A DNA stretch of 64,000 bases. It comes from Candidatus Omnitrophota bacterium. Lineage in GTDB: Bacteria > Omnitrophota > Gorgyraeia > B26-G9. Position 1 is the first letter of the stretch; each line of letters begins with the position of its first letter. Made by a program: the position numbers and the translations under genes. The notes below the pieces were generated by a model, which searched no databases, had not been told where the DNA came from, and saw only the letters and a list, made by a program, of their open reading frames with translations. The stretch spans positions 17,744 to 81,743 of the forward strand of contig JBDRPX010000008.1 in NCBI GenBank assembly GCA_043826565.1, read 5' to 3'. This document shows positions 2,482 to 28,820 of this stretch, in pieces.

Positions 2482-3567
2482 CTATTTGTTCAATTTTTTA
2501 ATTTGTTTTTTTGCTGTTTTAATGAATTGCCCGAATTTGCGGTCTTTTTCTCTTTTTTCGAGTTTACTCATAGTATTATATTCGTTTTCCTTTACCAGCT
2601 TAAGATAGTTGTCATATTTACCTTTATCCAAACGGCCGGAAGATACAGCTTTCAAAACAGCACATCCCGGTTCATTAACATGGCCGCAATCAAAAAATTT
2701 ACAAGCCTTTGACAGTTCATAAATTTCCGAGAAAACACTTTTTATCCCTGTTTCTGAGTCCAATACTCCGATTTCCCGCATTCCGGGATTGTCAATTAAC
2801 ACACCGCCACTTTCTAATATGAATAATTCTCTATGAGTAGTAATATGTTTACCTCTATTTGCACTTGAACTTATCTCGGCAGTCTTGATTAAGTTTTCAC
2901 CCAAAATACTATTTATAATAGATGATTTCCCCACCCCGGAAGAACCCAGAAAACAGCCGGTTAACCCTTTTTTTATACTGTTTTTTATATCACTAATCCC
3001 TTTGCCTGTGATAATGCTCGTTGTATAAATCTCAATATTCCTGAACCTCTCTCTTATCTCAATTATTTTTGCGTCTAATTCATTCTTTGATATCAGATCA
3101 GTTTTATTCAGGACTATTACCGGTTTTATGTTTTCTGATTCGGCAAGCGCAATATATCTTTCAAATCTATTTAAATTATAATCCCTATCCGGGGATTGAA
3201 TGATCAAAGCAGCATCAATATTTGAAGCAATCAGCTGTTTGTCTGAATTACTGACGGATTTTCTTATTAGTACTGTCTTTCTGGGGAGTATTTCATGGAT
3301 AAGAGCCTGTTCTTCATCAAGAACCGTTATTAAAACCCAGTCTCCCACCGCGGGATAATCTTCGCGCGATGAAGCGGTAAAAATCATTTTGCCGGTTATT
3401 CTTGCGGATAGTTCAGCGGTCTCATTCCTTAGAATATATAATTCTTTATGTTCGGCAATGATCCGGGCGGGAGTAAGGGTTTTGTTTTCTTTATTTTTTC
3501 GATTATTATCAAAAAACTCGCCATAACCGATATCTGCCAAATTGATTTTTCTAATGTTTTTTTTCAT
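2482..3567 (-). CDS. rsgA: ribosome small subunit-dependent GTPase A (RsgA/YjeQ)
   Basis: 361 aa; G4-G1-G3 circular permutation, GSSGVGKSSIIN P-loop, DNPGMRE, C-terminal zinc finger CxFxDCxHxxEPGCAV. Confidence 0.85.
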   Translation of the reverse strand: MKKNIRKINLADIGYGEFFDNNRKNKENKTLTPARIIAEHKELYILRNETAELSARITGKMIFTASSREDYPAVGDWVLITVLDEEQALIHEILPRKTVLIRKSVSNSDKQLIASNIDAALIIQSPDRDYNLNRFERYIALAESENIKPVIVLNKTDLISKNELDAKIIEIRERFRNIEIYTTSIITGKGISDIKNSIKKGLTGCFLGSSGVGKSSIINSILGENLIKTAEISSSANRGKHITTHRELFILESGGVLIDNPGMREIGVLDSETGIKSVFSEIYELSKACKFFDCGHVNEPGCAVLKAVSSGRLDKGKYDNYLKLVKENEYNTMSKLEKREKDRKFGQFIKTAKKQIKKLNK

Positions 3568-3613: not shown

Positions 3614-4318
3614 TCATCCGAATATTTTTATTCCGATCATGCCCACGAGAAATCCCAGGCTTGCCCCCAAGGCAGGTTCCCAATGTTTTTTAATTTTTGA
3701 TAACGGCGCAATATCCTGAAATATTAAATATAAGATCCCTCCGGCGGAGAATAGCATGATCCCCGCGGTAAGCTCAGGTTTATTAATTAAAAAATATCTT
3801 CCCGCCAAAGCAGAAAAAACTCCCAGAAAACTAAGCATAAAAAAGATCAGTAAAATATTTTTTGCCGTATAACTGCTTTTGCGTAATTCAAAATAAGCAT
3901 TGAATGATTCCGGTAAGTTTTGAAATCCGATAAAAAACGCGAGCAGAATACCCAGCCGGTGATTGTGCGCGAAAACCGCTCCTAAAGCAATTGCTTCCGG
4001 AACAAAATCCATAAGCATGGCCATGGCCTGCGCGAAAACTCCGCCTTTTTGTTCAATGAAGCGGTCGATAATAAAGAACACGAACGCTCCCAGCAAAAAG
4101 ATCAGGGAAAATTTCGGAATAGAAAACATTTCCACGCCTTTTGGCGTAAGGACAAAGGCCACGGCTGCGATAAGGATACCGCCGCCAAAAGCAACCGTCC
4201 AATGGAGAATATACGATTCTATTTTTTGCCGGCAGCAGCGTTCAAATATTCCGGCTAAAAAACCGCCAAAAAATATCGTAATTCCCGCTAATATTGAGTA
4301 AATAATAATTTCTATCAT
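3614..4318 (-). CDS. ZIP family metal (zinc) transporter
   Basis: 234 aa polytopic membrane protein; HNxxxG..FQNLPE motif resembling ZupT HNxPEG signature. Confidence 0.55.
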   Translation of the reverse strand: MIEIIIYSILAGITIFFGGFLAGIFERCCRQKIESYILHWTVAFGGGILIAAVAFVLTPKGVEMFSIPKFSLIFLLGAFVFFIIDRFIEQKGGVFAQAMAMLMDFVPEAIALGAVFAHNHRLGILLAFFIGFQNLPESFNAYFELRKSSYTAKNILLIFFMLSFLGVFSALAGRYFLINKPELTAGIMLFSAGGILYLIFQDIAPLSKIKKHWEPALGASLGFLVGMIGIKIFG

Positions 4319-4373
4319 TTTGTTTTTCCACCAGCCCGTCCCGATTGGGCGAAGCTGTCGTGAGTTGGCATAA

Positions 4374-4559
4374 TCACAAATTAATCCATTTCGATATTTT
4401 TATGGTAGTTTGATAAATCACCCAGGAATTTTTTGCAATTTCTCCGTATTGGTTTAAAATCATTTCATTATTCATAATATCACCAAAAACACATTCCTGA
4501 TTCTGCGTACATATCGTTACAAAATAATACCCACCATTTGAATAATCATAATCTTTCAT
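4374..4559 (-). pseudogene. truncated REP-associated tyrosine transposase (RAYT / IS200-like Y1) N-terminal fragment
   Basis: 61 aa MKDYDYSNGGYYFVTICTQNQ.. matches N-terminus of the RAYT at 28186 (YDYSLNGYYFVTICSKNR) but lacks HuH and catalytic Tyr regions. Confidence 0.55.
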
Positions 4560-4584: not shown

Positions 4585-5616
4585 TTATTCATTTATTCTC
4601 GCAGCCGCTATCATTTTTTTTACATTTTCAATAGTATTAATAGGCATTAGTAAAATATTAGGATGGTTCCTTTCGAACACCCTAAAAATCTCATCAGCAA
4701 AAGCTCGACCGATTGAATCAACTTCTTGAAAATCTAGAATTACAGTTTTAAATCTATCAATCCTACCGAGTAATCTCTTAGCCTGAGATCTGGATATCAG
4801 TTTTTCAGCGCCATGTTTTACTAGTCGAACAGGGACAACTGTTTTTGTAAAACCATAATCTTCTTCTTCAGAAGCAAAACGATCAAATATTTCCTTATCA
4901 GTACGATCACTTTGATTTGCTAGAGACATAAAAATAGATGTCCCTGTTTTTGAAGCCTCTCGTTCAATAATCCAGTCTTCATCTTCTTCCAGTTCATGAG
5001 AAAAGAATACTTCTCCGGAAAGAATTGCAAATTCATCCAGCATTCTTGAAGTAAAAAAGATTCCTTCTCCAGTATGATTTTCGCTATCAGTAGTTAGTTT
5101 TCCTTTAGCTAATTCCAAAACTGCATGCCGCTCATCCTCTAAATTGCATTCTTTTTTAATTTTTCTAAATATCCCAACCCCATCATCATGAATACTTATC
5201 CTAGTTAAAAAAGAGTTCATTTCAATAGATATTACTATTTTTGTTCCTGCAGAATGATCTATGGCATTATTGACCATTTCTGTGAAAGAATAATGCCAAA
5301 TATCTATGACGTTAGCAGGAAAGTTATTAAAAAGATTAAAAAGCTTTTCTCTCCACAGGACATCTTCTTTTAGTCCACTTAATGGAATTGAGAAACTACT
5401 TTTGTGTATAACCTTAAGGGAGTAAGTTCGTTGCCGTGTGTTTCCATTAGCGGAAATATGTCCTTCTTTTAAGAGATCTTGAATATATCGATTTACTGCT
5501 TGTCTCGAAATATTAAAATGTTCAGCAGTTTGGCTGACAATATGTTGAGGGTTTGTTGAGATATTTTCTAAGATAAATCTTCTAATTTCTATACCACGCT
5601 TATAAGATTTTTTCAT
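4585..5616 (-). CDS. wHTH - GHKL (HATPase_c) ATPase - STAS-like (DUF4325) fusion protein
   Basis: 343 aa; N-terminal HTH (ISRQAVNRYIQDL), N-box NAIDHS, G1 DDGVGI, G2 GEGIFF, C-terminal STAS-like region; upstream direct repeats TTGTCAATATTTT x2 (5696-5713, 5764-5782). Confidence 0.5.
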   Translation of the reverse strand: MKKSYKRGIEIRRFILENISTNPQHIVSQTAEHFNISRQAVNRYIQDLLKEGHISANGNTRQRTYSLKVIHKSSFSIPLSGLKEDVLWREKLFNLFNNFPANVIDIWHYSFTEMVNNAIDHSAGTKIVISIEMNSFLTRISIHDDGVGIFRKIKKECNLEDERHAVLELAKGKLTTDSENHTGEGIFFTSRMLDEFAILSGEVFFSHELEEDEDWIIEREASKTGTSIFMSLANQSDRTDKEIFDRFASEEEDYGFTKTVVPVRLVKHGAEKLISRSQAKRLLGRIDRFKTVILDFQEVDSIGRAFADEIFRVFERNHPNILLMPINTIENVKKMIAAARINE

Positions 5617-5823
5617 GATTTTAGTTTTCCTATAAAGAACTTATTGTGATTAATTGGCTATAAAGCATCTTTTACATTGTAAACAAAAATAATCCACATT
5701 GTCAATATTTTGTTGTATAATATGCCAATGAAAACACATAACGTTTTATATATCAACAAGTTAATTGTCAATATTTTATTAGCTATTCGGAAGAATATTT
5801 CTAGATAATGATCTTTATTTTAC

Positions 5824-5880
5824 ATCTAACGTTTGAGCTCCGCCCTACGAAGCATGGCGGAGTAGTGTGTTGTTTTATGT
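5824..5880 (-). other. integron attC-like recombination site (minus-strand orientation)
   Basis: minus-strand reading: ATAAAACAACACAC (compare attC6 ATAACAACACAC) ..CTCCGCC atgcttcgtag GGCGGAG CTCAAAC GTTAGAT; 3' half near-identical to attC8 GAGCTCAAATGTTAGAC; begins 1 nt after stop of CDS 5882-7210. Confidence 0.45.
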
Positions 5881-5881
5881 A

Positions 5882-7210
5882 TTAATTATCTGCTTTTACT
5901 TCTCGCAGATGCTCTCTGAGTTGTTTTTTATAATTAGACCGTCTATACTCAGTAAACTCTGCAGAATACAACTTTTCCGCTAAATCACGAAACCCTATCT
6001 CTAGCTCCTTTACAGTCATATTCTTAGGGATGTAATTTACATCAAATAATGTGCATTTTTTCCAGTCACCCTCTTCAGTCACCCTCTTCTCAGCAACAAG
6101 CCTCTCATAAAGCGGCGTTCCGGGAAAAGCTGTCATTATTGTTATCTGTACTTCATATAAACCGCTGTCCTTAACAAACTCAAACACATTATCAAAGATT
6201 GATTTATCCTGGCCATCTAGGCCAAGGATAAAACAGCCGTTAACAGTTATTCCATATGATTGTATTTTATTTATTGCCTGTTTATACTTTTCTAATTGAC
6301 TGGATTTCCAGTTATTTATCAGCTCAATACCATCAAGATCTCTCTTTACGGGACTTTCAAAGCCTATTAATACCTGCTGACACCCGCCTTCCCGCATAAG
6401 AGTTAAAAGTTCCTCATCCTCAGCTACGGAAACATCTGTTTCTGTAAACCACTTGATCTTTTCATACCTCAGTTCCTTTAGTAACTCTTTCCAGTAGGCT
6501 TTATTAACAAAAGTATTATCATCGGCAAATTCAATAAACGGACGCTCCCATAACTTTTTAATCTCACGGATCTCCTCAAGCACCTTTTGAGCCGGTTTCT
6601 GCTTATACTTCTTGCTTATTAAAATAGACGCCGCACAAAACTCACATTCATGCGGACATCCCCGGGAAGTCTGAACAGTTAAACGATTATATTTTTCCGG
6701 ATCAAGAAGATCAAATCTCGGCATCGGTGCGTCTTTTAAATCAAAATCCTTATTAAATGAACTATAATATGGCTGCAGCGTTCCATTTTTAAAATCCTGC
6801 AAAAGATCTTTCCACACAGCTTCCCCCTCACCAATTACAACAGAATCACAATGTTCTTTAGCTTCTTCAGGAACGCTGGTTACATGCGGCCCGCCGATTA
6901 CAGTTTTAACTCCTATCTGAACATACCTATCGGCTAACTCATAAGCTTCAAATATCTGAGCACTGTATGTTGAAATAGCGACAAGATCAAAAGGCCCGGG
7001 AAGCTCATTAACATCTTTAATATCCGAGATCTCAATATATTCAATATCAAACTCATCCGGGGTCAGCGCGGCTAAGGTTATCAGCCCTAAACTAGGCAGC
7101 GAAGCAATGATCTTATTACGATCAACAAACCCCGGCAGAGTAAGCCCTAACTCTGTAAGCTCTTTATTATAAGCTCGAACTCCGCTCATTGCTATTAATC
7201 CTATACGCAT
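5882..7210 (-). CDS. B12-binding domain radical SAM protein
   Basis: 442 aa; N-terminal cobalamin-binding Rossmann region, CPHECEFC (CxxxCxxC) radical SAM cluster motif. Confidence 0.75.
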   Translation of the reverse strand: MRIGLIAMSGVRAYNKELTELGLTLPGFVDRNKIIASLPSLGLITLAALTPDEFDIEYIEISDIKDVNELPGPFDLVAISTYSAQIFEAYELADRYVQIGVKTVIGGPHVTSVPEEAKEHCDSVVIGEGEAVWKDLLQDFKNGTLQPYYSSFNKDFDLKDAPMPRFDLLDPEKYNRLTVQTSRGCPHECEFCAASILISKKYKQKPAQKVLEEIREIKKLWERPFIEFADDNTFVNKAYWKELLKELRYEKIKWFTETDVSVAEDEELLTLMREGGCQQVLIGFESPVKRDLDGIELINNWKSSQLEKYKQAINKIQSYGITVNGCFILGLDGQDKSIFDNVFEFVKDSGLYEVQITIMTAFPGTPLYERLVAEKRVTEEGDWKKCTLFDVNYIPKNMTVKELEIGFRDLAEKLYSAEFTEYRRSNYKKQLREHLREVKADN

Positions 7211-7213
7211 ATA

Positions 7214-7606
7214 TCATCCTTTTTGTGTTTTAGCCCAATTGAGAAAGGCCAAATTCTTAACCACACCAATAATACTTAAAATTGATATCACTAAAAATAC
7301 CATAGGAATACCCATGGTAAAATAACAATACAAAACAGCCGTAGCAAAAGATAACTTCATAAGTAATCTAACTACTACCAGATCAATATTCCTTAAAGGA
7401 TTTTTAGCGATTAAAAACTCACCCACCCCCCCGCAGACAATAAAAAGAGCGGGAACAAATACATATCCAGGGTGATTGGGTAATGTAATACCACAAGCCG
7501 CATAAATACTCTTATAAAAGAATATAAAGCCTAACCCCAGCAGAATATCATAAACACCAACAATCCTAAAAGCTAACGGAAAATTAATATTTTTATTCAT
7601 AGACAA
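7214..7606 (-). CDS. hypothetical small membrane protein
   Basis: 130 aa, 4 predicted TM helices; tightly packed between 5882-7210 and 7616-8020. Confidence 0.45.
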   Translation of the reverse strand: MSMNKNINFPLAFRIVGVYDILLGLGFIFFYKSIYAACGITLPNHPGYVFVPALFIVCGGVGEFLIAKNPLRNIDLVVVRLLMKLSFATAVLYCYFTMGIPMVFLVISILSIIGVVKNLAFLNWAKTQKG

Positions 7607-7615
7607 CTCCTTCCT

Positions 7616-8020
7616 TTATAAATTCAGTAATTCATACTGCAAAGTTTCATGGTCAAGCATTGATTGCCAAAAACTTTCATTATACTTATGATACATATTA
7701 AACCAGGCTCTAAACATTCTTTTTTTTAATGTCTTCTTAAGAAGGTTTTCCAGCATATCATGCGAAAGCACAGAAAAAACAATATTCGCAGCAGCTTTTA
7801 AAAAAGCTTTTCTTATCACAGGTACCGAAAAACCCAGATTGTTCAATTCATTAACGATATAACCCGCCGTCACCACCTCATTAAGAGAAAGTCTTTTATA
7901 AACAAATACCTTAGGCTTCTCTGAAGTTTTCAAAGAAAGCGCATTGTATATACTCTCTCCCAGGTTTTCCACCAGAAACATTCTTCTCAATGTATTCTTG
8001 TATTTAATATTGGTTTTCAT
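7616..8020 (-). CDS. hypothetical protein
   Basis: 134 aa ORF; ATG 6 nt downstream (minus strand) of GTTAAAC core of attC-like site. Confidence 0.4.
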   Translation of the reverse strand: MKTNIKYKNTLRRMFLVENLGESIYNALSLKTSEKPKVFVYKRLSLNEVVTAGYIVNELNNLGFSVPVIRKAFLKAAANIVFSVLSHDMLENLLKKTLKKRMFRAWFNMYHKYNESFWQSMLDHETLQYELLNL

Positions 8021-8025
8021 TTTTT

Positions 8026-8072
8026 GTTTAACATTTGAGCTCAGCCCCGCTTGGCCGGGGTTAGCTCGTCCC
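8026..8072 (-). other. integron attC-like recombination site (minus-strand orientation, short)
   Basis: minus-strand reading: GAGCTAAC CCCGGCC aag CGGGG CTGAGCTCAAAT GTTAAAC; 3' half matches attC4/attC8 (CTGAGCTCAAATGTTA); followed directly by ATG of 7616-8020. Confidence 0.4.
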
Positions 8073-8280
8073 GCCGTTTTTTGCAGAAATTACTATCACT
8101 TTTTCACCGGATATCTGCCGCAGGAGAATTTCTCCCCTTCCGGGCAGGATTTTAAGGATTCACATTTAGCTCCGGCTTCGCTAAACACTGCCGGCACGCG
8201 GAATAAATTACAGAGATTACGTTCGGGGAAAATTCCAGAAGTCTTAAGTCTAATCGCGCCTGTGGCATTACTTACACCGT

Positions 8281-11139
8281 TTATTGCTTTTCTTTTTCTA
8301 ATATATCCATAAATACTTTAACCAGATTGGGATCAAATTGCGTATTGGCATTATCCTGAATTACTTTCGCGGCGATTTCAATTGAACACGCTTTACGGTA
8401 ACAGCGGTCGGAAGTTAATGCTTCATAAGTATCGGCGATCGCGATGATCCGCGCGGCCACCGGGATTTCCTCTTTTTTCAAACCATAAGGATACCCCTTC
8501 CCGTCCCAGCGTTCATGATGATGCAGGATCAGCGGCAGGATACCATGAAAGAAATGGATCGGCCGTAAAATATCCACGCCGATCTGCGGATGGCTTTTGA
8601 TCTCTTCATATTCACTTTTCGTAAGCTGAGAATTTTTCATCAGGATCTTTTCACTGATCCCGATCTTTCCCAGGTCGTGTAAAATAGTCGCCTGCCGTAT
8701 TCTTTCTATCTCATTTTTAGATAAACCGATATTCCGCGCGATCGCGGTCGCGTAATGAACTGTTTTTTCCACATGCTCGCCGGTATAATGGTCTTTCATT
8801 TCGATGGTTTTAGCAAAAGCAAAAATCGCTTCCGCCAAACTCTCATTTGCCTGCTTGGTAAGCTTATCCAGCTTTTCCTGTAAAAATTCCACATCTTCTA
8901 TTTCTTCTTTAGATTGTGATGCCGGCTGTTTCTGGTCCATATCTATGGACGAACATACCCTGTCCCCGCCTCTTTCTTTGGCTAAACTCAATACTGCCTC
9001 AGCCGCGGAAATAAAATCCATGCCTTTAATCAGCTTATCTTCCGGAAAAGCAACAACCGCCATGCTGAGTTTTACTTTAACACTGTGTTCCTCATCGCCA
9101 AAATGCTGTAATCTTAGGGTTTCTAATAAACGCTGGGCCAAAATAAAAGCCAGGTCCCGGCCCATGCCCGGAGCAATAATAATAAATTCTTCTCCGCCGT
9201 AACGGATAAGCGTATCGTATTTACGCACCATTTGTTTCAGCTGAATAGCTATCTGGTGCAGAATTACATCCCCGAATTCATGGCCGTAAACATCATTAAT
9301 TGATTTAAAATAATCCAAATCAACCATAATCAAAGCCAGGGGGCTATGCTGCCTCTTCGCACGGACAAATTCCGCTTCAATTGCTTCCTGAAAATACCGG
9401 TGATTATATAATCCGGTATGCGGATCGATCAATACTAATTGTTTTAATTTTTCATTTGCTTTTAAAAGTTCCGCGTTCAGCCTTTCCCGGTCTTCTTCTA
9501 AATGCTTATAATGGCTGATATCGGTAATAACTCCTTCTAAAGCAATGATCGCTCCATTTGAAGAAAAAATACCTTTACCGTAATTATTTACCCATTTTTC
9601 TTTACCCCCGGCAGTCAGAATTCGGTAAGTAAGCTTAAATTCCTGCTTTATCTCCAGCGCGTTTTTCACATCCGCCAAAACCTTCTGCCGGTCATCGGCA
9701 TGAATTATCTGGGCAAAAGGAACTTTGGCGCTATTGGTAATATCCGCGGACGAATATCCGGTAAGTTCAAAACATCCGTCACTGATAAATTCCACGGTCC
9801 AGGTTTCATCATCTTTGCAGCGATAGACCATCCCCGGCAAATTACTCATCAAGGTTGAAAGCATTCTCTGGCTGTCTTCGATCTGCTCCGCGGCTTTAAC
9901 CTGCTCAGTAACATTCACATCCGACCCGCGATATCCCAGCAACTCTCCTTTTTCATCTAAAATCGGCGCGCATTTTGCTTCGACAACAACGATCTTGCCG
10001 TCTTTACTGACCTTATTATGCACAAATCCCGCGCAAGTTTCTTTCCGGGCAAATTTTTCAAAAATTATTTTGGTCAACTCTTCTCTTTCATCCGGAGCAA
10101 ACAGCTCATAGCAGTGTTTTTTACCTAAAAGTTCTTCCTGCTTATATCCCAGGATGTTCTGGACCACGGAATTACAATAAGTATAAAGGCCTTGCGGATT
10201 TACTTCCCAAACCCAGGTGCCGGCGTTTTCCGCTGCGCTGCGAAAACGCTCTTCACTTCTTTGTAATATGTTTTCCGATTGTTTGCGGCCGGTAATATCC
10301 CGAAAACTCCAGACCCGGCCCACAACTTTTCTCCCTTCTTTAAGCGGACAGGAAAAACGTTCAAACACGCGCTGGTCTTTAAATAAAAGCGTATCTAAAC
10401 TCTCTCTGGAAGAAGCATATAACTGCCGCACTTTGTCGGTAAATTCCTGCGGATATTCCAATTGGTCCAGGACAAATTCAAGCAAAGTATTATCATCATT
10501 TGTTTTTAAAATATCCCCGGGGATTTTCCACATTTTGGCAAAACGCGCATTATAATGCGTAACCCGGCCTTCATTGTCAACCACAAGAATTCCATCTTCG
10601 GTAGCTTCAATAGTGGCCCGGAATAATTTTTCATTTTTCAACAATTGCTCTTCGGCTTTTTTCCGGGCCGTAATATCTCTGGTCATTCCGATAAAAGCTT
10701 CCGGATGCCCCTGTTTATCCATAACAACTCCGGCACTTATATCCGCGTAAAAAAATGTTCCGTCTTTTTTCAGTAATGTATATTCAACTGTTCTAACAAT
10801 CTTTTCCTTATATATACGTTCCATATCTTTACGCGCGCGGTCTCTTTCCTGCGGCGCGAAAAATTCAAACACATCCCGGCCTAATAATTCATCCGCCTTG
10901 TCATAACCATGCATTATAATTTTTGCGCGGTTAACCATAATCACCCTTCCGGATAAATCCGTAAGAGTAATCGCGTCCGGAGAAGTTTCAATAAGGGTCT
11001 GATATAGTTCTACGCTTTCATAAAGCGCGTCCTGCGTACGCTTATGGCCGATACGGATCCTTTCAATACCAACCATTCTTTTGCGTAGAACCTGAAGTTT
11101 CTTTAGCAGATTTAATTCTGATTTTTTTTGCTCTTCCAT
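8281..11139 (-). CDS. PAS/PAC multi-sensor c-di-GMP enzyme (GGDEF diguanylate cyclase + HD-GYP phosphodiesterase)
   Basis: 952 aa; several PAS blocks, RYGGEEF GGDEF motif, HD (ILHDLGKIGI) and HHERWDGKGYP HD-GYP motifs. Confidence 0.8.
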   Translation of the reverse strand: MEEQKKSELNLLKKLQVLRKRMVGIERIRIGHKRTQDALYESVELYQTLIETSPDAITLTDLSGRVIMVNRAKIIMHGYDKADELLGRDVFEFFAPQERDRARKDMERIYKEKIVRTVEYTLLKKDGTFFYADISAGVVMDKQGHPEAFIGMTRDITARKKAEEQLLKNEKLFRATIEATEDGILVVDNEGRVTHYNARFAKMWKIPGDILKTNDDNTLLEFVLDQLEYPQEFTDKVRQLYASSRESLDTLLFKDQRVFERFSCPLKEGRKVVGRVWSFRDITGRKQSENILQRSEERFRSAAENAGTWVWEVNPQGLYTYCNSVVQNILGYKQEELLGKKHCYELFAPDEREELTKIIFEKFARKETCAGFVHNKVSKDGKIVVVEAKCAPILDEKGELLGYRGSDVNVTEQVKAAEQIEDSQRMLSTLMSNLPGMVYRCKDDETWTVEFISDGCFELTGYSSADITNSAKVPFAQIIHADDRQKVLADVKNALEIKQEFKLTYRILTAGGKEKWVNNYGKGIFSSNGAIIALEGVITDISHYKHLEEDRERLNAELLKANEKLKQLVLIDPHTGLYNHRYFQEAIEAEFVRAKRQHSPLALIMVDLDYFKSINDVYGHEFGDVILHQIAIQLKQMVRKYDTLIRYGGEEFIIIAPGMGRDLAFILAQRLLETLRLQHFGDEEHSVKVKLSMAVVAFPEDKLIKGMDFISAAEAVLSLAKERGGDRVCSSIDMDQKQPASQSKEEIEDVEFLQEKLDKLTKQANESLAEAIFAFAKTIEMKDHYTGEHVEKTVHYATAIARNIGLSKNEIERIRQATILHDLGKIGISEKILMKNSQLTKSEYEEIKSHPQIGVDILRPIHFFHGILPLILHHHERWDGKGYPYGLKKEEIPVAARIIAIADTYEALTSDRCYRKACSIEIAAKVIQDNANTQFDPNLVKVFMDILEKEKQ

Positions 11140-11157
11140 GGCTTTTTAAATGTTTTT

Positions 11158-11526
11158 TTAGACAACGCTTTTTATCAGCGTTTTTAGACGATCAAGATTG
11201 AAAGGTTTAGTAATAAAGTCATATGCTCCCAGCTCCATTGCCTTGCTGGTCATAGAATTCGTGCCGTGCGCGCTAACCATAATAACGATAATTTTATCAT
11301 CAATTTCTTTAATCTTTTTTAGAGTCTCAATCCCGTTCATACCCGGCATATAGATATCCAGCAAAACAATGTTTGGTTTTTCTGATTCTAAAAGTTCCAA
11401 AGCCTGTTCACTATTACCGGCTTCAACTGTTTCATATTCTTTGGATAAAGCCTGAACAAAAATTTTTCTTATAAGAGGTTCGTCATCAACCAGCAGTATT
11501 TTTACATTTTTTTGGATATCTGTCAT
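11158..11526 (-). CDS. response regulator receiver (CheY-like) protein
   Basis: 122 aa; KILLVDDEPLIRK..LLDIYMPGMNG..K receiver signature. Confidence 0.8.
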   Translation of the reverse strand: MTDIQKNVKILLVDDEPLIRKIFVQALSKEYETVEAGNSEQALELLESEKPNIVLLDIYMPGMNGIETLKKIKEIDDKIIVIMVSAHGTNSMTSKAMELGAYDFITKPFNLDRLKTLIKSVV

Positions 11527-11675
11527 AAAACAATCTCTCCTTTTATCGGCCCCTAATAAAATATTTTTTGTTTCTTATGTATTGTAACAAGGTATCCAGG
11601 ATCAGGCAACAAAAAAGTGATAATCTTCTTTCCCCAAGAATACACCTATGTTATTATAATTTATAAGGAGCAAAT

Positions 11676-12104
11676 ATGCTAGGATCTAAATTCGGGGTAA
11701 CCCAGGGAAAAATTGATCTTCTTCTCAAGAAGATGCAGAAGCTCGGTATCCGGGAATCGGACATTAAAGAGCGTTTTATCCGCTCGCAAGGCCCCGGAGG
11801 ACAAAACGTAAATAAAACTTCTACATGTGTTTACTTAAAGCACTTACCTTCCGGTATTGAGGTCAAATGCCAGCGGGAACGTTCACAGGCACTCAATCGG
11901 TTTTTAGCCCGAAAAACTCTGGCGGCAAAAATAGAAAATCAAATCCTGGGCAAAAAAAGCGAAGAGCAGCAGCAAATAGCCAAGCTTAAACGTCAAAAGC
12001 GAAAACGTTCCAAAAGAGCCAAGGAAAAAATTTTAAAACTAAAAAAGATGCATTCAGAAAAGAAACAATCACGAACACTTAAGATTGATTCAGAAAATTG
12101 GTAA
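11676..12104 (+). CDS. arfB: alternative ribosome-rescue factor ArfB (RF-1 domain peptidyl-tRNA hydrolase)
   Basis: 142 aa; GGQ motif (SQGPGGQNVNKTST) and basic C-terminal tail. Confidence 0.7.
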   Translation: MLGSKFGVTQGKIDLLLKKMQKLGIRESDIKERFIRSQGPGGQNVNKTSTCVYLKHLPSGIEVKCQRERSQALNRFLARKTLAAKIENQILGKKSEEQQQIAKLKRQKRKRSKRAKEKILKLKKMHSEKKQSRTLKIDSENW

Positions 12105-12183
12105 AAATCATCCAAACAAGACTTGACATATTATACTTTTTGACATAATCTATTAATATACTTAATATATATAGGGGGATTAA

Positions 12184-12349
12184 TATGGGTAGGATCGGTT
12201 TACCTGAATTATTAATAATTTTATTTATCATTCTCTTGCTCTTCGGAGCGGCGAAACTTCCTCAACTATCTAAGTCTATTGTCAAAAGCTTAACTGAATT
12301 CAAAAAAGGAATTTCCGAAAAAAAAGAAAATGACGATACTAGTTCTTAA
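12184..12349 (+). CDS. tatA: twin-arginine translocase subunit TatA/E
   Basis: 55 aa ORF below ORF-track cutoff: MGRIGLPELLIILFIILLLFGAAKLPQLSKSIVKSLTEFKKG; immediately upstream of Tat-signal hydrogenase small subunit. Confidence 0.7.
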
Positions 12350-12354
12350 CTCGT

Positions 12355-12384
12355 AAAGCCCATAAGTTTACTTATGGGCTTTTG
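12355..12384 (+). terminator. putative rho-independent terminator after tatA
   Basis: AAAGCCCATAAG ttta CTTATGGGCTTT followed by TG-rich/T tract. Confidence 0.4.
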
Positions 12385-12449
12385 ATATATATAGGTAATT
12401 ATTTTTAAGGGGATTGTATTAATTAGCAACTAATTGAAAGGGGGCAAGA

Positions 12450-13397
12450 ATGAAGTTAACCCGAAGAGAATTTTTTAAACTCTGCGCAGGTACTGCCGCG
12501 GGGGCGGGAATTTCACAATTATATGTGCCGGAAGTTGTTGCGGCATTAAATGATGCTGCTGCCGGTAAACCGCCGGTTATCTGGCTGCAGGGACAAAGCG
12601 ACAGTGGTTGTTCTGTATCTTTACTAAATACTACTCACCCGACAATTGCCGAAGTACTACTGAAAGTTATCAGCTTGCGTTACCACGCGACAGTCATGGC
12701 CGGTACCGGAGAAACAGCCAACGCGCCGCTGGAAGAAGTGAAAAAAGAAGCTTCCGGTAAATTTATCCTTATTGTTGAAGGTTCAATTCCGACCGAAGGC
12801 GACGGTGCTTATTGCGTAATCGGAGAACAAAACGGCAAACCTCTTTATATGGCTGAAGTATTAAAAGATTTAGCACCTCACGCGGCAGCTATAGTAGCTG
12901 TAGGAGCATGCGCTGCTTTTGGCGGAATTCCCGCGGCAAGGCCCAACCCTACCGGAGCTAAGTCGGTTAGTGAATTTTTAGGCCAGCCTGTAGTGAATAT
13001 TCCCGGCTGCCCGGCCCATCCGGACTGGATCGTCGGGACACTGGTACATGTTTTACTATACGGCATGCCTGATTTAGATGACCAAGGCCGGCCGACTTTG
13101 TTTTTTGGAAAAACAATACATGAAAATTGTCCCCGCTATTATTACTTTGCCGACGGACAATACGCAGAAAATTTTGGTGAAGAAGGCTGTCTTATACAAT
13201 TAGGCTGTAAAGGCCCGGTTACTCAATCTGACTGTCCTTCCCGCAAATGGAACAGCGGAGTTAACTGGTGTATTCAAAACGGCGGAATGTGTATCGGATG
13301 CTGCGCGCCTAACTTCCCGGACGGAACAGGTGCGATGTATACGGCATTACCGGAAAATCTGTGGCCAAACAAAGATCCTAAACGAACAATAGTATAA
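12450..13397 (+). CDS. [NiFe] hydrogenase small subunit (Tat signal)
   Basis: 315 aa; RREFFK twin-arginine signal, proximal/distal Fe-S Cys motifs (CxxC..GCPxHPDW, CxxxxxC..C). Confidence 0.85.
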   Translation: MKLTRREFFKLCAGTAAGAGISQLYVPEVVAALNDAAAGKPPVIWLQGQSDSGCSVSLLNTTHPTIAEVLLKVISLRYHATVMAGTGETANAPLEEVKKEASGKFILIVEGSIPTEGDGAYCVIGEQNGKPLYMAEVLKDLAPHAAAIVAVGACAAFGGIPAARPNPTGAKSVSEFLGQPVVNIPGCPAHPDWIVGTLVHVLLYGMPDLDDQGRPTLFFGKTIHENCPRYYYFADGQYAENFGEEGCLIQLGCKGPVTQSDCPSRKWNSGVNWCIQNGGMCIGCCAPNFPDGTGAMYTALPENLWPNKDPKRTIV

Positions 13398-13411
13398 AAA
13401 GGGGGGGGATT

Positions 13412-14821
13412 ATGTCCAAAACAATAATAATTGATCCGATTACCAGGATCGAAGGTCATTTGGGAATTGAAGTTGAAGTTGAAGATGGAAAAGTTACTGA
13501 TGCCAAATGTATAGCAAATATGTTCCGCGGATTTGAAAAGATTTTACAAGGAAGAGATCCCCGTGATGCTATACACATAACCCAAAGAATCTGCGGAGTC
13601 TGCTCTGCTGCTCATGCCACCGCAAGTGTTAGCTGTATTGAAAGTGCTGCCGGTGAAATTATTCCGGAAAACGCGCGGATAATCAGAAACTTAGGGCTGG
13701 GAGCAAACTATCTCCACTCTCATATTCTGCATTTCTATCACCTGGCCGCTCTGGATTATGTACAAGGCCCGGAAGTTCCGCCGTTTATCCCCCGCTACAC
13801 CGGTGATTACCGCTTACCGGAAAAAGTAAACGCGGCCTGTGTCGCGCATTATCTGGAAGCACTGAAGATCCGGATGCTGGCACATGAAATGCGCGCGATC
13901 TGGACCGGAAAAGCTCCGCATCTTGTTGGTTTTATGCCCGGAGGTGTAAGCGAGCAGCCGACTGTTGACAAAATCGCCGGATATATCTGGCGCTTAAAGA
14001 AAGTTCAGGACTTTATTGAAAACATTTACATACCGGATGTTCTGGCCGTAGCGGATATTTATAAAGACTACGCGGAAATCGGTACCGGATATGGGAATCT
14101 GCTGGCTTATGGTGTGTTTGATCTAAACCGCGGCGGCATGAAAAAATTACTCGGCCGGGGTGTTATTTTAAACGGTGAAGCTGCTCCTTTAGATCCGGCA
14201 AAAATCAGCGAAGATGTATTCTTTTCCTGGTATAAAGACGATACCAGCGGGAAAAATCCCAAAGAAGGCGCGACTGAACCGGTAGTAGGAAAAGAAGGCG
14301 CTTATACCTGGGCCAAAGCTCCCCGCTATAACGGAGCTCCCTGTGAAGTAGGACCGCTGGCGCGGATGACCGTAAACGGCGATTATAAAGGCGGCACTTC
14401 GGTTATCGACCGTCACGCGGCACGTGCTTTAGAAGCAAAAAAGATAGCCGGGGTTTTGGAAGAATGGGCCTTACAATTAAGACCCGGTGAAAGTATCTAC
14501 AAGAAAGCGGAAGTACCTAAAGAAAATTACGGCATGGGCTTAACCGAAGCTCCGCGCGGTGCTTTAGGCCATTGGGTAAATATTAAAGATTCAAAAATCG
14601 CAAACTATCAGGTAATGACTCCCACGGTGTGGAACGTATCACCAAAGGATGATAAAGGCCTGCGCGGACCGATTGAACAGGCATTGATCGGAACTCCGGT
14701 TCAGGACGCGGATAATCCGATTGAAATTGCCCGGGTAGTCCGTTCCTATGATCCCTGTTTAGCCTGTACAGTGCATTTGATCAAACCCAGCGGAGAAATT
14801 AAAAAGTTCCGCGTAGCTTAA
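13412..14821 (+). CDS. [NiFe] hydrogenase large subunit
   Basis: 469 aa; N-terminal RICGVCSAAH and C-terminal DPCLACTVH Ni-Fe ligand motifs. Confidence 0.9.
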   Translation: MSKTIIIDPITRIEGHLGIEVEVEDGKVTDAKCIANMFRGFEKILQGRDPRDAIHITQRICGVCSAAHATASVSCIESAAGEIIPENARIIRNLGLGANYLHSHILHFYHLAALDYVQGPEVPPFIPRYTGDYRLPEKVNAACVAHYLEALKIRMLAHEMRAIWTGKAPHLVGFMPGGVSEQPTVDKIAGYIWRLKKVQDFIENIYIPDVLAVADIYKDYAEIGTGYGNLLAYGVFDLNRGGMKKLLGRGVILNGEAAPLDPAKISEDVFFSWYKDDTSGKNPKEGATEPVVGKEGAYTWAKAPRYNGAPCEVGPLARMTVNGDYKGGTSVIDRHAARALEAKKIAGVLEEWALQLRPGESIYKKAEVPKENYGMGLTEAPRGALGHWVNIKDSKIANYQVMTPTVWNVSPKDDKGLRGPIEQALIGTPVQDADNPIEIARVVRSYDPCLACTVHLIKPSGEIKKFRVA

Positions 14822-14822
14822 A

Positions 14823-15272
14823 ATGACTTTAATTATCGGCTGCGGAAATATTCTGCTTGGTGATGAAGGTGTGGGAGTACATTTAATTGAAACACTTAGT
14901 AAGCAAGAAGTACCTGCCGGAGTTGACCTCCTTGACGGAGGTACCGGCGGTATTGAACTTATAACATATATAGAAAAAGCGGATAAGGTTATTATTGTCG
15001 ACGCAATTCAGGCCGGCGGAGAAAGCGGTGCCATTTATAAATTCCGGCCTGATGATTATGAGCAGGAGGACTGCCCTATCAGCTCCGCCTCTTTGCATGA
15101 GATTTGCCTTAAAGATGTCTTTTCGACAATGAAACAGCTAGGCATAAAAAAAGATATTCTTATTTTCGGTATTGAGCCGGAAAGTGTCGAATTAAAAATT
15201 GGTTTATCGGAAAAAATCAGCAAGCTTCTGCCAAAACTTATTGACTTGGTCTTAAACGAAATAAAAGGATAA
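14823..15272 (+). CDS. hydrogenase maturation endopeptidase (HyaD/HybD family)
   Basis: 149 aa; GCGNILLGDEGVG motif; directly after large subunit. Confidence 0.8.
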   Translation: MTLIIGCGNILLGDEGVGVHLIETLSKQEVPAGVDLLDGGTGGIELITYIEKADKVIIVDAIQAGGESGAIYKFRPDDYEQEDCPISSASLHEICLKDVFSTMKQLGIKKDILIFGIEPESVELKIGLSEKISKLLPKLIDLVLNEIKG

Positions 15273-15305
15273 TGTTTTAAAAAGGATTTTAACGAAGGAG
15301 GAGAT

Positions 15306-17012
15306 ATGTTTGCAATCGTAAGGCGGTCATTGGGAGGAAAAATTGCCGGCTGGATAGGAATTGTTTTGGTCATTGTTTTTGCTATCCTGGCCATCAGCAA
15401 TACCCTGTATCAGGCAAAAGTGATCAGTAACACTGAATCAGAAAATGCCAATGCTTTAGCCAGCACAATATTAGGCGCGATCCGTTACCCGATGCTTGAA
15501 GGAGAACAGGAATTAATCCAAAAACAATTAGAACTTATCCGTGAACAAAACCCGGGACTTGTCATCCATCTTGTCAATCATACCGGAAAAATAAAGCGCA
15601 GCACAGAGCCAGAGTTGATCGGCGAAATATCCATGTCCCACAATTTAAAAACTATCATTGAGAATCCGGATAAAGCAGAAAAATTTAAAGGTGTTGTTAT
15701 CCGGGAAAGAACACAGTCGAGAGTTTATGAAGACATCGAACCTATCAATAACAGCAAAGAATGCATGGTTTGTCACGGGAAAGATCTTACCCTGCTTGGG
15801 GCATTGCGTATCGCCAAAGATTTCGTCCCGGTTGATAATGCTATTGCTGCCGCCCGCAATCGGAATATCCTTATTTCTCTTATCGGATTCATAATCACGA
15901 TCTTTATTATTTTATTCTTATCTAAAATAATGCTGCAGCCGCTGGCAAAACTGGAAAAATTTACGGAAGATCTGGCCGCGCAAGGCGGAGATTTAACTCA
16001 GCTTATAGATATTCAGTCCGAAGATGAACTCGGCCGTTTGGGTGCTTCCTTTAACAAAATGATTGATACCCTGCACAATATTATCGTGGAAGTTAAAAAT
16101 ACCGCGGATAAAGTCAGCACATCTGCTCAAGGATTGTCCAGTTCCGCCGAACAAATCAACGCTTCCACTGAAGAAGTCTCTTCGACAGTACAGCAGATCA
16201 GCCAGGGTATTACCACCCAGGCCAGACGCAGTGAAGAAACATCGAATATCATCAGTAAAATGACCGAATCTGTAAAACAAGTTGCCAGCAGTGCTAAAGA
16301 AAGCTCCTTAGCCACAAAAGAAACCTCGGAACTGGCTCAGGACGGTATGAAAGCATCGCATCAAGCCGCGGACAAAATAATCCGAATTACCGAATCGGCA
16401 AATCAGATCGCGACCGTAGTTGAACAGCTGGGCGCACGTTCCCAGGAGATCGGCAGAATTGTCGACGTAATTACCAACATTGCCGATCAGACCAACCTGC
16501 TGGCTTTAAACGCCGCGATTGAAGCTGCCCGCGCCGGAGACGCCGGAAGAGGATTTGCCGTAGTAGCCGAAGAAGTAAGAAAATTAGCGGAAAACTCCGC
16601 TCAGGCCGCCACACAAATCGGATCATTGATCAGAACAATCCAGGACGAAACATCAAAAGCCGTTGCTTCCGTAACAACAGCTACAACAGAAGTTGAAGAA
16701 GGCCGGCTGATAATTGAAAAAGTCCAGCAGTCGCTGGAAAAAATTTTCAAAGCCGCGGAAATCGCCGCTGCCCAGGTAGAACAAATTGCCGAAGCCAGTA
16801 ATAAACAATCAATTAATGCCCAGGAGGCAAAAAGCGCGGTAACGGAAGTTGCGGCAATTTCTGAAGAATCAGCTTCATCAATAGAGGAAACATCAAGCTC
16901 TGTGGAAGAAATGACTGCGAGCATGGAGGAAATGGCTTCCAGCGCGCAGGAACTGGCCGCAATGAGTGTCAATCTTCAGGACCTGGTCAAAAAATTCATT
17001 ATTAGGGAATAA
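15306..17012 (+). CDS. methyl-accepting chemotaxis protein with periplasmic c-type haem (CxxCH) sensor domain
   Basis: 568 aa; two TM helices, periplasmic CMVCHG haem-binding motif, HAMP, MCP signalling domain with methylation heptads. Confidence 0.8.
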
Positions 17013-17029
17013 AAACAAAGGAGAATGAA

Positions 17030-17539
17030 ATGAAAAAATACTATTTTATTATACTGATTTTAGCCGGGGTTGCTTTGTTGTCTGTTCCCTTTGCCGGTGC
17101 CCAGGAAGAAGAATCTTACACCCCGCCTGCTCCCAAAAAAATATATTCCAAACCAAGTGTATCAGAGTCCGGCGAACAAGCCACCTATGTCGGAATAGAG
17201 TCCTGTAAGGCCTGTCACGCGAAACGCTACGAAGATTTCCAGAAAAGAAAATTTAAAAAAGCCTGGACTATTTTAGAAATGCGCGGAGAAAACAAAAACC
17301 CGGAATGCCTGGTTTGCCATACCACCGGATACGGAAAGCCCGGCGGATTTGTCAATGAGCAGATAACACCTCATCTGAAATTTAAGCAATGTGAAGCCTG
17401 CCACGGCCCGGCAAGCCTGCACACTAAAAACATCTCCGACAAAAAATATTCTAAGCAGCTTCTCAATACCATAAAAGACGAAGATACTTGCATTCAATGT
17501 CATAAGTGTGTAGCTACACACAGCAGCACTGATTTCTAA
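17030..17539 (+). CDS. tetrahaem cytochrome c (secreted)
   Basis: 169 aa; signal peptide; four CxxCH motifs (CKACH, CLVCH, CEACH, CIQCH). Confidence 0.75.
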   Translation: MKKYYFIILILAGVALLSVPFAGAQEEESYTPPAPKKIYSKPSVSESGEQATYVGIESCKACHAKRYEDFQKRKFKKAWTILEMRGENKNPECLVCHTTGYGKPGGFVNEQITPHLKFKQCEACHGPASLHTKNISDKKYSKQLLNTIKDEDTCIQCHKCVATHSSTDF

Positions 17540-17563
17540 AGACAAGCATTACCAGAGCTCAAA

Positions 17564-17595
17564 AGCCCTCTCTGATCTAGAGAGGGCTTTTTTTA
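17564..17595 (+). terminator. rho-independent terminator (bidirectional) after cytochrome c
   Basis: AGCCCTCTCT gatct AGAGAGGGCT + TTTTTTT; A tract upstream. Confidence 0.65.
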
Positions 17596-17630
17596 GGTTC
17601 TTTCTTGTTTAAAGAATGACCCTTAATATT
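17594..17630. repeat. partial inverted copy of the 161-bp structured repeat (ends only)
   Basis: AGGTTCTTTCTTGTTTAA + AGAATGACCC = reverse complements of the 3' and 5' ends of repeats at 38397 and 40471. Confidence 0.4.
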
Positions 17631-18459
17631 TATTTTGAAAAAAATCTTCAAACGCGTGGCTGTGTATCTTTATATCCCGGAAATACTTTTGCGCTGATTT
17701 TTGGATATTGGTTTTCAGCCCGATAACTGTCTTTCCATAAAATTCCCGGTCTTTACCCAAACGCTCATAAACCTTAACATACTCCGGATAAACCTGCTTT
17801 ATAAGCTTAATTATATTCGGTATCCCCGCCATTTTAAAATTCATTATTTCAAATTCCGCCTTTTCTACTCCCGGCATCTTCTCCGCCGCATGAGGAAACT
17901 CAAATAACTCCGGCATAACCGGACAAAAATAAGCAATTACCGGAATATTGTTTTTCGCCAGAAGATTAGCTGTTTTAACACTATCTTCTACAGAAACAGC
18001 ATACGGCTCAAAGCACTCCCTTATTTTTCCCGGCAATGTATCAATAGTAAAGTATATAGCTTCACAATTTCCCTCCCCCAGCAAAGATATATACTCACAA
18101 ACTAATAGAGAACGCGTAAGAATTATATACTTAATCTTCCTCTGATTAAGCAGTTTTAAAACCGCCTCGGTGACCCCATACTTTTTTTCCGCGGCTTGAA
18201 AACATTCCGTAGTTGAACCGAGTAATACTTTCTCCGGATTTTTCTCGTCTAATTCCCGCTCTAAAACTTCTAAAGCATTAATTTTTACTTTTACGTATTG
18301 TCCCCAGGGAAGTTCCTCTTTAAGCGCCTTTTTGCTGAACTGCGCGTAGCAAAACAAACATCCCATCTGACAACCCTGGTAAGGATTTATCACATAAGGA
18401 GCGAGATTAATCCCGGTAGGCCTAAGGATTGTGGTTATTTTCTGTTCGATTATTTTCAT
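17623..18459 (-). CDS. radical SAM protein, DNA photolyase / spore-photoproduct-lyase-like family
   Basis: CQMGCLFC CxxxCxxC motif near N-terminus; start taken at MKIIEQK (ORF track start 18510 would overlap intI by 89 nt). Confidence 0.6.
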   Translation of the reverse strand: MKIIEQKITTILRPTGINLAPYVINPYQGCQMGCLFCYAQFSKKALKEELPWGQYVKVKINALEVLERELDEKNPEKVLLGSTTECFQAAEKKYGVTEAVLKLLNQRKIKYIILTRSLLVCEYISLLGEGNCEAIYFTIDTLPGKIRECFEPYAVSVEDSVKTANLLAKNNIPVIAYFCPVMPELFEFPHAAEKMPGVEKAEFEIMNFKMAGIPNIIKLIKQVYPEYVKVYERLGKDREFYGKTVIGLKTNIQKSAQKYFRDIKIHSHAFEDFFQNKY

Positions 18460-27452: not shown

Positions 27453-28106
27453 ATGCCTTTTTCTGAAAAAATTAAATCAGAGGTAAAAGAAAAAGCAGCT
27501 TATCAATGTTGTGTCTGTCGCAAAATAGGTACTGTTGAAGTCCACCATATAATACCACAAGAGTTTGGGGGCCCCGACACAATTGAGAATGCTGCACCGC
27601 TATGTCCGAACTGTCATACTGATTTTGGAGATAATCCTAAAAAGCGCAAAGCAATAACGGAAATGCGAGACTGGTGGTATAAAAAATGCGAAACTATGTT
27701 TCCAAAACCAGATTTAGAGATATTAAAGAATATAAATTCAAAATTAGAAAACATACAAGAACACCAAGAAAACGTAGTTGAATTAAAAGAAATATTGAAG
27801 AATTTTTCAAATAAAACAATTGATATGATCTCTGTTGACACAGCAAATGCTTCTGCTTCTGCAATTGTTCGTTCCGTCAGTGCAATTAGAATAGACCCAG
27901 TGGTATATCCGACCCCATTAGAAAATTCGCTATACTGTGTTAATGAATATAAGATACATTATTGTATATACTGTGGTTTTGGTTATAAGGTTGTTAATAA
28001 CAATGCAGCATATACACTTGCTTTAAGTCCAGTAAGTGGTATTGAAATTGAATGCCCTAAATGCAAACAAAAAGAACTTCATAAATCATTTCATGACATT
28101 ACATAA
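27453..28106 (+). CDS. cassette 10: HNH endonuclease family protein with C-terminal zinc ribbon
   Basis: 217 aa; CCVCR..VEVHHIIPQEFGG..NAAPLCPNCH HNH motif; C-terminal CIYC..CPKC. Confidence 0.65.
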   Translation: MPFSEKIKSEVKEKAAYQCCVCRKIGTVEVHHIIPQEFGGPDTIENAAPLCPNCHTDFGDNPKKRKAITEMRDWWYKKCETMFPKPDLEILKNINSKLENIQEHQENVVELKEILKNFSNKTIDMISVDTANASASAIVRSVSAIRIDPVVYPTPLENSLYCVNEYKIHYCIYCGFGYKVVNNNAAYTLALSPVSGIEIECPKCKQKELHKSFHDIT

Positions 28107-28177
28107 CAAATCTATTCACCTAACTGGTGGGTGCCCGGATTTGGGCTCAACCCAGTAGGTGATATTTATGTTATAGA
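28102..28177 (+). other. attC10 (family A variant)
   Basis: R'' CATAAC 28102-28107 overlapping stop; R' GTTATAG 28170-28176. Confidence 0.6.
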
Positions 28178-28185
28178 AATAAAAA

Positions 28186-28720: not shown

Positions 28721-28798
28721 CAATTCGCTCCAGGGCAATCGGAACCCGCCCCGAAAAAGACCGGGTCGGAACCCTCCCAGTGATTTCGGGCGTTATAT
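28716..28798 (+). other. attC11 (family C variant)
   Basis: R'' TATAAC 28716-28721 overlapping stop; GCAATCGGAACCC..GGGTCGGAACCC; R' GTTATAT 28792-28798. Confidence 0.55.
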
Positions 28799-28820
28799 AT
28801 AAATAAAAAAGGAGAGAAAA

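Follow-up and report, generated by a model that had tools for sequence, protein, structure and literature searches.

An inverted block of gene cassettes far from the integrase of an Omnitrophota integron is probably a decayed fragment of its array

Clusters of attC sites lacking an integron-integrase, known as CALINs, have been defined as a class of their own (Cury et al., 2016; PMC4889954). Two origins are recognised for them, the splitting of an array by a rearrangement and insertion at secondary sites, and half of them are found in replicons that encode the integrase IntI (PMC4889954). Integron integrases are already widely annotated in metagenome-assembled genomes (MAGs) of Omnitrophota (NCBI entries). 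We describe here an integron-related block in a stretch of 64,000 nucleotides from a Candidatus Omnitrophota bacterium (assembly GCA_043826565.1, contig JBDRPX010000008.1, positions 17,744 to 81,743), referred to below as the window. The block lies at 8082-4374 on the minus strand, and it is probably a decayed, CALIN-type fragment of the array of the resident chromosomal integron. It would comprise, in this order, an attC remnant (site A), a 2.2-kb cassette of three genes (p1-p2-p3, the triad) ending in a second attC-derived site (site B), a cassette carrying an HTH-GHKL ATPase gene, and the stump of a RAYT gene. With these four components, it is longer than the original prediction had it.

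The window contains a bona fide integron integrase gene, intI (18422-19747, minus strand), whose product matches TIGR02249 with 412 bits against a cut-off of 265, and, to the right of it, a main cassette array with 12 attC sites (20545-30203, plus strand). As RNAalifold returned no structure on a MAFFT alignment of the 12 attCs, their structure was written by hand and then checked. Structurally aligned in this way, the array attCs show the classic R''-spacer-L''...L'-spacer-R' layout, with 96% of the stem positions paired, abundant and strong covariation, and two unpaired columns on the 5' arm (n=12). A true integron with 12 paired attCs is thus present in the window and provides a real reference against which the block can be judged. 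The near end of intI (18422) is 10.3 kb from site A, with housekeeping genes (NiFe hydrogenase, chemoreceptor, cytochrome c) in between. The cassette-like unit in opposite orientation and far from intI that had been predicted is therefore borne out, about 10 kb of ordinary genes separating the two. No second intI, intI-like fragment or intI pseudogene was found in the 64-kb window, and no Rfam match within 4000-31000.

The block is linked to this array by the 3' arms of its two sites. The 14-nt motif GAGCTCAAAYGTTA is found at exactly four places in the window: two on the minus strand, in site B (5827-5840) and site A (8029-8042), and two on the plus strand of the main array, in attC4 (22191-22267; match at 22251-22264) and attC8 (26892-26959; match at 26943-26956), whose 3' arms are thus common to sites A and B. 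It is found in none of 100 shuffles and in none of the 69 loci fetched from other genomes. When the two sites are locally aligned to the array attCs, site A reaches a score of 17, attained by 0/300 shuffles, and site B a score of 15, attained by 1/300. The identity of sites A and B with attC4 and attC8, announced in the original prediction as near-identity of the 3' halves, is real and far beyond chance. The block also has the composition of the array (G+C 0.352 and 0.347, respectively), unlike its flanks (0.39-0.43).

A related contig, L071 (GCA_043806135.1, 1-5433), gives an outer limit to the block. It has the gene order intI, radical-SAM, RF-1-domain and PAS-GGDEF-HD in common with the window (8281-18510), and the similarity ends exactly at the stop codon of the PAS-GGDEF gene (8281), where the block begins. 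When the window is compared with L071, an additional island is seen between the radical-SAM and RF-1 genes (12450-17539), which contains the NiFe hydrogenase, a maturation protease, the chemoreceptor and the cytochrome c.

Two covariance models, R1 and R2, were built from the native attCs of the array and run with filters off. In R1 the loop is treated as consensus, which penalises short sites; in R2 loop-deleted copies were added and the variable loop is treated as an insertion, following the design of IntegronFinder (PMC4889954). As to attCs outside the training set, R2 gives 15.1 bits to attC11 of the array and 12.7 bits to an attC (3722-3793, with boxes canonical by eye) of L064, a locus of an Omnitrophica MAG. 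R2 is therefore narrow, and with it an attC of another subtype obtains about 13 bits. Two related intI contigs end at intI, and no other Omnitrophota arrays were recovered for a broader model.

Site B, the attC of the triad itself (5878-5824, minus strand), is 55 nt long and begins 1-3 nt past the stop codon of p3 (5884-5882), which agrees with the attC-like site predicted directly behind the last stop codon. It is eroded and keeps the full attC layout, with R'' ATAAAAC, spacer AACACAC, a 7-bp stem CTCCGCC/GGCGGAG, CTCAAAC and R' GTTAGAT. The AAC and GTT triplets of R'' and R' are present, and 5/7 positions of the two boxes pair. The 3' end of p3 together with R'' of site B aligns with a related locus, L001, that has a canonical GTATAAC box (24 nt, 92%), and R'' of site B therefore carries a 2-nt AA insertion relative to canonical ATAAC. 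The fold z-score of the site is -2.4 to -2.7. With R1, site B (10.4 bits, E 9.4) is the only match outside the array and its opposite-strand echoes; with R2 it gains little (12.9 bits, E 3.7) and is the best, non-significant match outside the array and its echoes, site A being still undetected. These top matches are on the correct strand and in the correct place. A weaker and partial R2 match lies at 14999-15060.

Site A (8082-8026, minus strand) is attC-derived; its 3' arm is good, its 5' arm aberrant. Its R' box is the canonical GTTAAAC (8032-8026), which had indeed been predicted ahead of the p1 start codon (ATG 8020), but it ends 5 nt before this codon, not 6. Read from its 5' end, the site consists of an R''-like AAAAAAC (8082-8076), a spacer GGCGGGAC (8075-8068), a stem arm GAGCT/AA/CCCCG (8067-8056), a loop (8055-8050), the other stem arm CGGGG/CTG/AGCTC (8049-8037), and AAAT (8036-8033) before R'. 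It folds as a 5+5 bp stem with an AA/CTG internal loop. GCTAAC, initially taken for the R'' box, is placed by folding within the L stem (GAGCT-AA-CCCCG / CGGGG-CTG-AGCTC), and the R'' candidate falls outside the end first given to the block, 8072. A 19-nt stretch of the site is identical to attC8 at 18/19 positions, and the 3' arm (8046-8029) matches the profile of the array 3' arms with 12.0 bits (E 0.017), when the array attCs themselves obtain 12.0-18.8. The 5' arm contains a 14-mer, AACGGCGGGACGAG (AAC-RGCGGGAC-RAG), which occurs once in the window and, among all fetched loci, only at both flanks of the orthologous triad of L060. Because of this homology to the L060 upstream site, AAAAAAC at 8082-8076 is the only candidate for R''. 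An attC would at some point have stood at the upstream junction of the triad, of which site A would be a probably non-functional remainder.

On the plus strand, site A (8056-8082) looks like an intrinsic terminator, with TTTTTT behind a hairpin. It does not coincide with the end of any plus-strand gene, and the T-run is the complement of the R'' candidate AAAAAAC. A further site suspected by eye nearby ('site C', about 8215-8150) was rejected, as it scores no better than shuffles and is matched by no model.

The structure of site A bears directly on an alternative in which only one cassette is involved. The triad and site B would have been put by IntI at a chromosomal GWT site, as a single-cassette attG insertion (SALIN), and site A would be no attC. 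IntI can place cassettes at positions that are not att sites, and cassettes standing alone are frequent (bioRxiv 10.1101/2022.09.11.507474); the failure of site A in the covariance models and its want of a proper R'' also speak for this explanation. However, an attG junction would hold only G|TT, whereas in site A the 16 nt directly 5' of the crossover point are the same as in attC4/attC8, and an L-type hairpin is present. Its 5' arm is moreover homologous to the sites flanking the L060 triad, the stretch CTGAGCTCAAATG is not part of the 5' end of the cassette in L001 or L060, and two more cassette remnants follow downstream. We consider this explanation very unlikely.

Between the two sites, cassette 1 (5830-8031, minus strand) extends over 2202 bp, from TT of the site A R' box to G of the site B R' box, and includes the three genes and site B. 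The positions of R' before the first start codon and of site B behind the last stop codon are those of a cassette, and the boundaries are the same in L001, L060 and L023/L063.

The next part of the block is cassette 2 (4585-5829, minus strand), composed of an HTH-GHKL ATPase-DUF4325 gene (5616-4585; domains from Pfam) and its own promoter region (5823-5617), in which a TTGACA-18-TACAAT promoter-like site precedes the gene (5705-5676). In L064, an 87%-identical homologue of this gene is itself a cassette and follows a RAYT fragment and the attC at 3722-3793 (CCATAAC...GTTATAG). The alignment of the window with L064 starts at the 3' arm and R' box of the attC and takes in the promoter and the gene (1182 nt, 82%), the sequences upstream of the 3' arm being unrelated. 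As the alignment starts at the 3' arm of an attC, site B is the junction between two cassettes. At the other end of cassette 2, no attC is found between the stop codon of the HTH-GHKL gene and the RAYT remnant, so that the expected 3' attC is missing; the stop codon runs directly into the 5' region of a truncated RAYT/IS200-like gene of 61 codons (4374-4559, minus strand). The attC of cassette 2 would have been deleted after the HTH-GHKL gene. A degenerate site had been suggested further on, at 4320-4372, but this sequence is no better than shuffled sequence and has no model match.

The RAYT stump aligns over 90 nt, with 76% identity, to the beginning of cassette 11 in the main array (28193-28278) and represents a remnant of a cassette homologous to it. 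Cassette 11 (28186-28714) holds a frameshifted IS200/RAYT-type gene, the joined frames of which pass the cut-off of PF01797 (Y1_Tnp) with 25.6 bits. RAYT genes thus seem to travel as cassettes here, in cassette 11, in the stump and in the fragment of L064. The two leftward neighbours named in the original prediction are in this way recovered, the HTH-GHKL ATPase gene by Pfam and the RAYT remnant indirectly, by its homology to cassette 11.

With a RAYT remnant close to the two sites, the block might also not be related to integrons at all. Sites A and B could belong to some other dispersed repeat, for instance RAYT-linked repetitive extragenic palindromes (REPs), or be terminator hairpins that resemble attC 3' arms. 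In addition to the RAYT remnant, the terminator-like hairpin and T-run of site A on the plus strand and the non-significant covariance scores would be in keeping with this. Against it, the four copies of GAGCTCAAAYGTTA in the 64 kb are confined to cassette boundaries, and the 69 other loci contain no copy; neither site has a predicted minus-strand terminator or lies at the end of a plus-strand gene; the main array includes the RAYT homologue as one of its own cassettes; and attCs are found at the same boundaries in orthologous triads. An origin outside integrons is therefore extremely improbable.

As to the region upstream of the HTH-GHKL-DUF4325 gene, the strong -35-like motif AAAATRTTGACAAT is present in it twice, in the window (5617-5823), in L064 (3800-4000) and in another locus, L069 (5800-6000), and the region is preserved among loci whose proteins are 71-87% identical. 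The HTH-GHKL-DUF4325 family is very widespread, mostly on short contigs.

Whether the triad is a cassette was decided mainly on comparative grounds. Close relatives of p3 number in the hundreds and come for the most part from Omnitrophota; 20-odd loci in which p3 is 60-91% identical were fetched, and about 69 kb were scanned with R2. p1-p2-p3 is conserved as a unit in most of the fetched loci. In the p3 tree, the window forms a clade with L060, L001, L062, L002 and L063/L023, apart from a sister clade; all attC-flanked copies fall in this one clade, and the gene neighbourhoods differ in every locus of it. R2 finds an attC at the p3 stop codon in L001 (7331-7401, E 0.011), L023 (1824-1878, E 0.006) and L063 (6298-6352, E 0.049). 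These are the best R2 matches in the whole of the sequence scanned, and each of them abuts or overlaps the p3 stop codon. On the upstream side, GTTAAAC or GTTATAT is found 5-6 nt before the p1 start codon in the window, L001 and L060, and the upstream site of L001 forms a strong attC-type hairpin (z -4.1). AttC boundaries are consequently seen on both sides in L001, on the 3' side in L023/L063, and in L060 as a 5' R' box with an array-like context. No attC was found in the sister clade, several members of which have the same upstream gene. The three-gene unit, which the original prediction proposed to look for as a cassette in related genomes, is found there with an attC at the p3 end in L001, L023 and L063, and the comparison supports the view that the triad is an old integron gene cassette.

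Several of these loci have particular features. In L023/L063, the 55-nt attC overlaps the 3' end of p3, so that the stop codon is within the site (TTCTAACGTTATAT) and the protein is 5 residues longer. The triad of L060 lies between 94-nt direct repeats (631-722 / 2880-2972) that are 87% identical and include a perfect small hairpin (ATTCAACCTCGCAGGTTGAAT) and an attC-like part; a second attC-like repeat (156-195 / 3067-3106, 95% identical) brackets the whole region. The flanking repeats were also considered as long attCs of about 115 nt and rejected, since L pairing is absent. A partial p3 homologue that is 93% identical (P0068) is labelled Thermodesulfovibrionia (Nitrospirota), and further homologues of 63-76% identity carry the labels Kiritimatiellae, Verrucomicrobiae and Delongbacteria, which suggests either a spread of p3 across phyla or mis-binning.

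Is the cassette still mobile? According to established integron biology, the integrase would bind the folded bottom strand of an attC and cut G|TT of the R' box. Recombination between sites A and B would then release the triad as a circle, able to re-enter at attI, 10 kb away. The block would have arisen either from a rearrangement splitting the array or from attC x attC insertion into an attC already outside the array. In an active CALIN, sites A and B would both be functional attCs and the triad would shuttle between this locus and the main array, provided that the integrase tolerates R'' boxes of the AAAAC type and short sites of 55-57 nt. Both sites retain the conserved AAC...GTT triplets and an L-type stem, and their sequence of unpaired central spacer (UCS) and R' box is exactly that of attC4/attC8; in L023/L063 and L060, too, short sites (55-56 nt) are found beside the triad; and integrases read structure more than sequence, CALIN cassettes being mobilisable by an integrase encoded elsewhere (PMC4889954). 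However, the covariance scores are low, the R-box duplex of site A stops at 3 bp, and the attC due after the HTH-GHKL cassette has been deleted outright. The damage differs moreover by genome: in the window R'' is bad and R' good, whereas in L001 R'' is good and R' bad (GCTGGAC), which looks like neutral decay. An active CALIN is thus unlikely.

A decayed array fragment is preferred to an active one, as the damage differs among orthologues and one internal attC has been lost outright. Since both sites are without a proper R'' box, the cassette would most likely be immobile or nearly so, a fossil.

A number of observations weigh against our interpretation of the block as a decayed array fragment. 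Neither site is significant by R1 or R2, the E-value of site B being 3.7-9.4 and site A being reported by neither model, and both models come from one array only, so that they are narrow and have sequence in common with the tested sites. The 5'-arm profile of the array matches neither site A nor site B, and the 3' arm of site B alone is weak. In the minimum-energy fold, the stem of site B has 7-8 bp and no extrahelical bases. In site A, the candidate R'' pairs with R' by 3 bp only (AAC/GTT), the spacers are unequal (8 and 4 nt), and the candidate is 8-10 nt from the stem. On the comparative side, no attC was found in L002 and L062, which belong to the p3 clade of the window, and some of the attC-like calls in L060 were made by eye only, additional repeats being present there. 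Finally, three-gene cassettes are unusual.

The original prediction was to be abandoned if both sites fell under the covariance threshold and if their identities were explained by a dispersed repeat present at non-cassette loci. The array-built models do place both sites under threshold, but the motif is found only at attC positions. The CALIN label must be qualified in a similar way. The block is attC-derived, cassette-bounded and inverted, but the strict definition, with at least two attCs passing a model, is not reached with the array-built models, and site A would probably not be called by the model of IntegronFinder. A decayed array fragment therefore fits better than a CALIN in the strict sense of IntegronFinder.

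The content of the triad cassette agrees with what had been predicted, three tightly packed minus-strand genes for a hypothetical protein, a small membrane protein and a B12-radical SAM enzyme, as regards open reading frames (ORFs), gaps and domains. p1 (8020-7616, from the ORF list) encodes a soluble hypothetical protein of 134 aa, which has no match in Pfam, NCBIfam or PADLOC and is conserved ahead of p2-p3, with 33-69% identity, in many loci. p2 (7606/7600-7214) encodes a small membrane protein, about 128-130 aa long, in which four hydrophobic segments are seen (maximum of 2.61 in a 19-residue Kyte-Doolittle window); its likely start is ATG 7600, preceded by GGAG, and it is conserved beside p3. 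p3 (7210-5882) encodes a B12-binding radical SAM enzyme of 442 aa with a DUF4070 tail (Pfam PF02310, PF04055, PF13282). It is far under the cut-off of every NCBIfam equivalog and curated radical-SAM subfamily, and its closest solved relative is AprD4 (E 3e-11). The gaps are 9-15 nt between p1 and p2 and 3 nt between p2 and p3. The triad has no meaningful match to a defence system, the only one being a weak, generic PADLOC radical-SAM match for p3 (PDC-M51A, E 1e-9). As no promoter-like site was found ahead of p1, the triad is presumably transcribed by read-through from the upstream PAS-GGDEF gene.

The triad exists in two forms. In the sister clade it is an ordinary operon, and in the cassette clade it has an attC at the p3 stop codon, unrelated neighbourhoods, and possibly hosts in other phyla. 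It is conceivable, although doubtful, that the attC-free operon is the 'pre-cassette' form of which the other is the 'cassette' form, and that the birth of a multi-gene cassette could be reconstructed from the pair; we keep this reading tentative, as the change may have run in either direction and the most relevant contigs are short. If the direction were from chromosome to cassette, this would be a rare traceable case of the attachment of an attC to a resident operon. As a large cassette with stable-operon relatives, the triad offers in any case a modest handle on the unsolved origin of cassettes. If the block is an array fragment, the resident integron has shed cassettes beyond its array, and cassettes stranded in this way lose their recombination sites piecemeal. 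The three or four genes of the block would then have to be annotated as accessory cassette cargo and not as core genes.

Some features of the resident integron lie outside these questions. At its N-terminus, the IntI protein is extended by about 100 aa that precede the canonical IntI region; its close homologues (P0242-P0360) are mostly 415-445 aa long, and the extension appears to be conserved in the Omnitrophota IntI clade. An IS110-family element (24442-26192; DEDD_Tnp_IS110 and Transposase_20), with its gene at 24959-26050 on the minus strand, is inserted in attC7 of the main array, just past the TAAC box. The same end of this insertion sequence (ATCTATAAGACC...) is found in L064 (5030-5343), a few nt past an R'' box ATATAAC behind the HTH-GHKL cassette, and the element looks like an attC-targeting insertion sequence of the IS1111-attC kind. 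Radical SAM genes lie directly beyond both ends of the integron: a gene of 295 aa (17623-18510) that overlaps the 3' end of intI, and a B12-type radical SAM gene (30230-31543) that abuts attC12. The latter was considered as a resident copy of the triad enzyme and rejected, its identity to p3 being only 24%. The GC skew tracks gene orientation and is no guide to which block faces the replication fork.

When compared with known systems, the block is closest to CALINs: it has two attC-derived sites on the same strand at a distance of 2.2 kb, no integrase is found within 4 kb of the block, and the replicon that carries it also encodes a complete integron, the array of which has the same composition and the same type of attC. 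It differs in that its sites are eroded and may fail the IntegronFinder model, an internal attC was lost by deletion, and the first cassette has three genes. CALINs being already described, the block belongs to a known class and does not overturn the current understanding of integrons.

The parent integron resembles the sedentary chromosomal integrons, such as the superintegron of Vibrio. It is chromosomal, with a bona fide IntI and attCs that are homogeneous within the genome, and its cassettes are mostly of unknown function, some of them with their own promoters. Unlike the Vibrio type, its host is a Candidatus Omnitrophota, its array is small (12 attCs), and the block is inverted and on the far side of intI. 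With SALIN and attG insertions (Loot et al., bioRxiv 10.1101/2022.09.11.507474), the block has in common that cassette material is found outside the integron, beside ordinary chromosomal genes, but its upstream junction is an attC-derived 3' arm and not a bare GWT, and more than one cassette remnant is present. Finally, cassettes of several genes have been described that carry toxin-antitoxin or compact defence systems (bioRxiv 10.1101/2024.07.02.601686; PMC13108822), and the triad is like them in having packed, co-oriented genes between two attCs. It differs from them in its cargo, in which a B12-radical SAM enzyme is accompanied by a membrane partner and by a small protein and which has no meaningful defence match, and in its relatives, which form a vertically inherited operon in other Omnitrophota.

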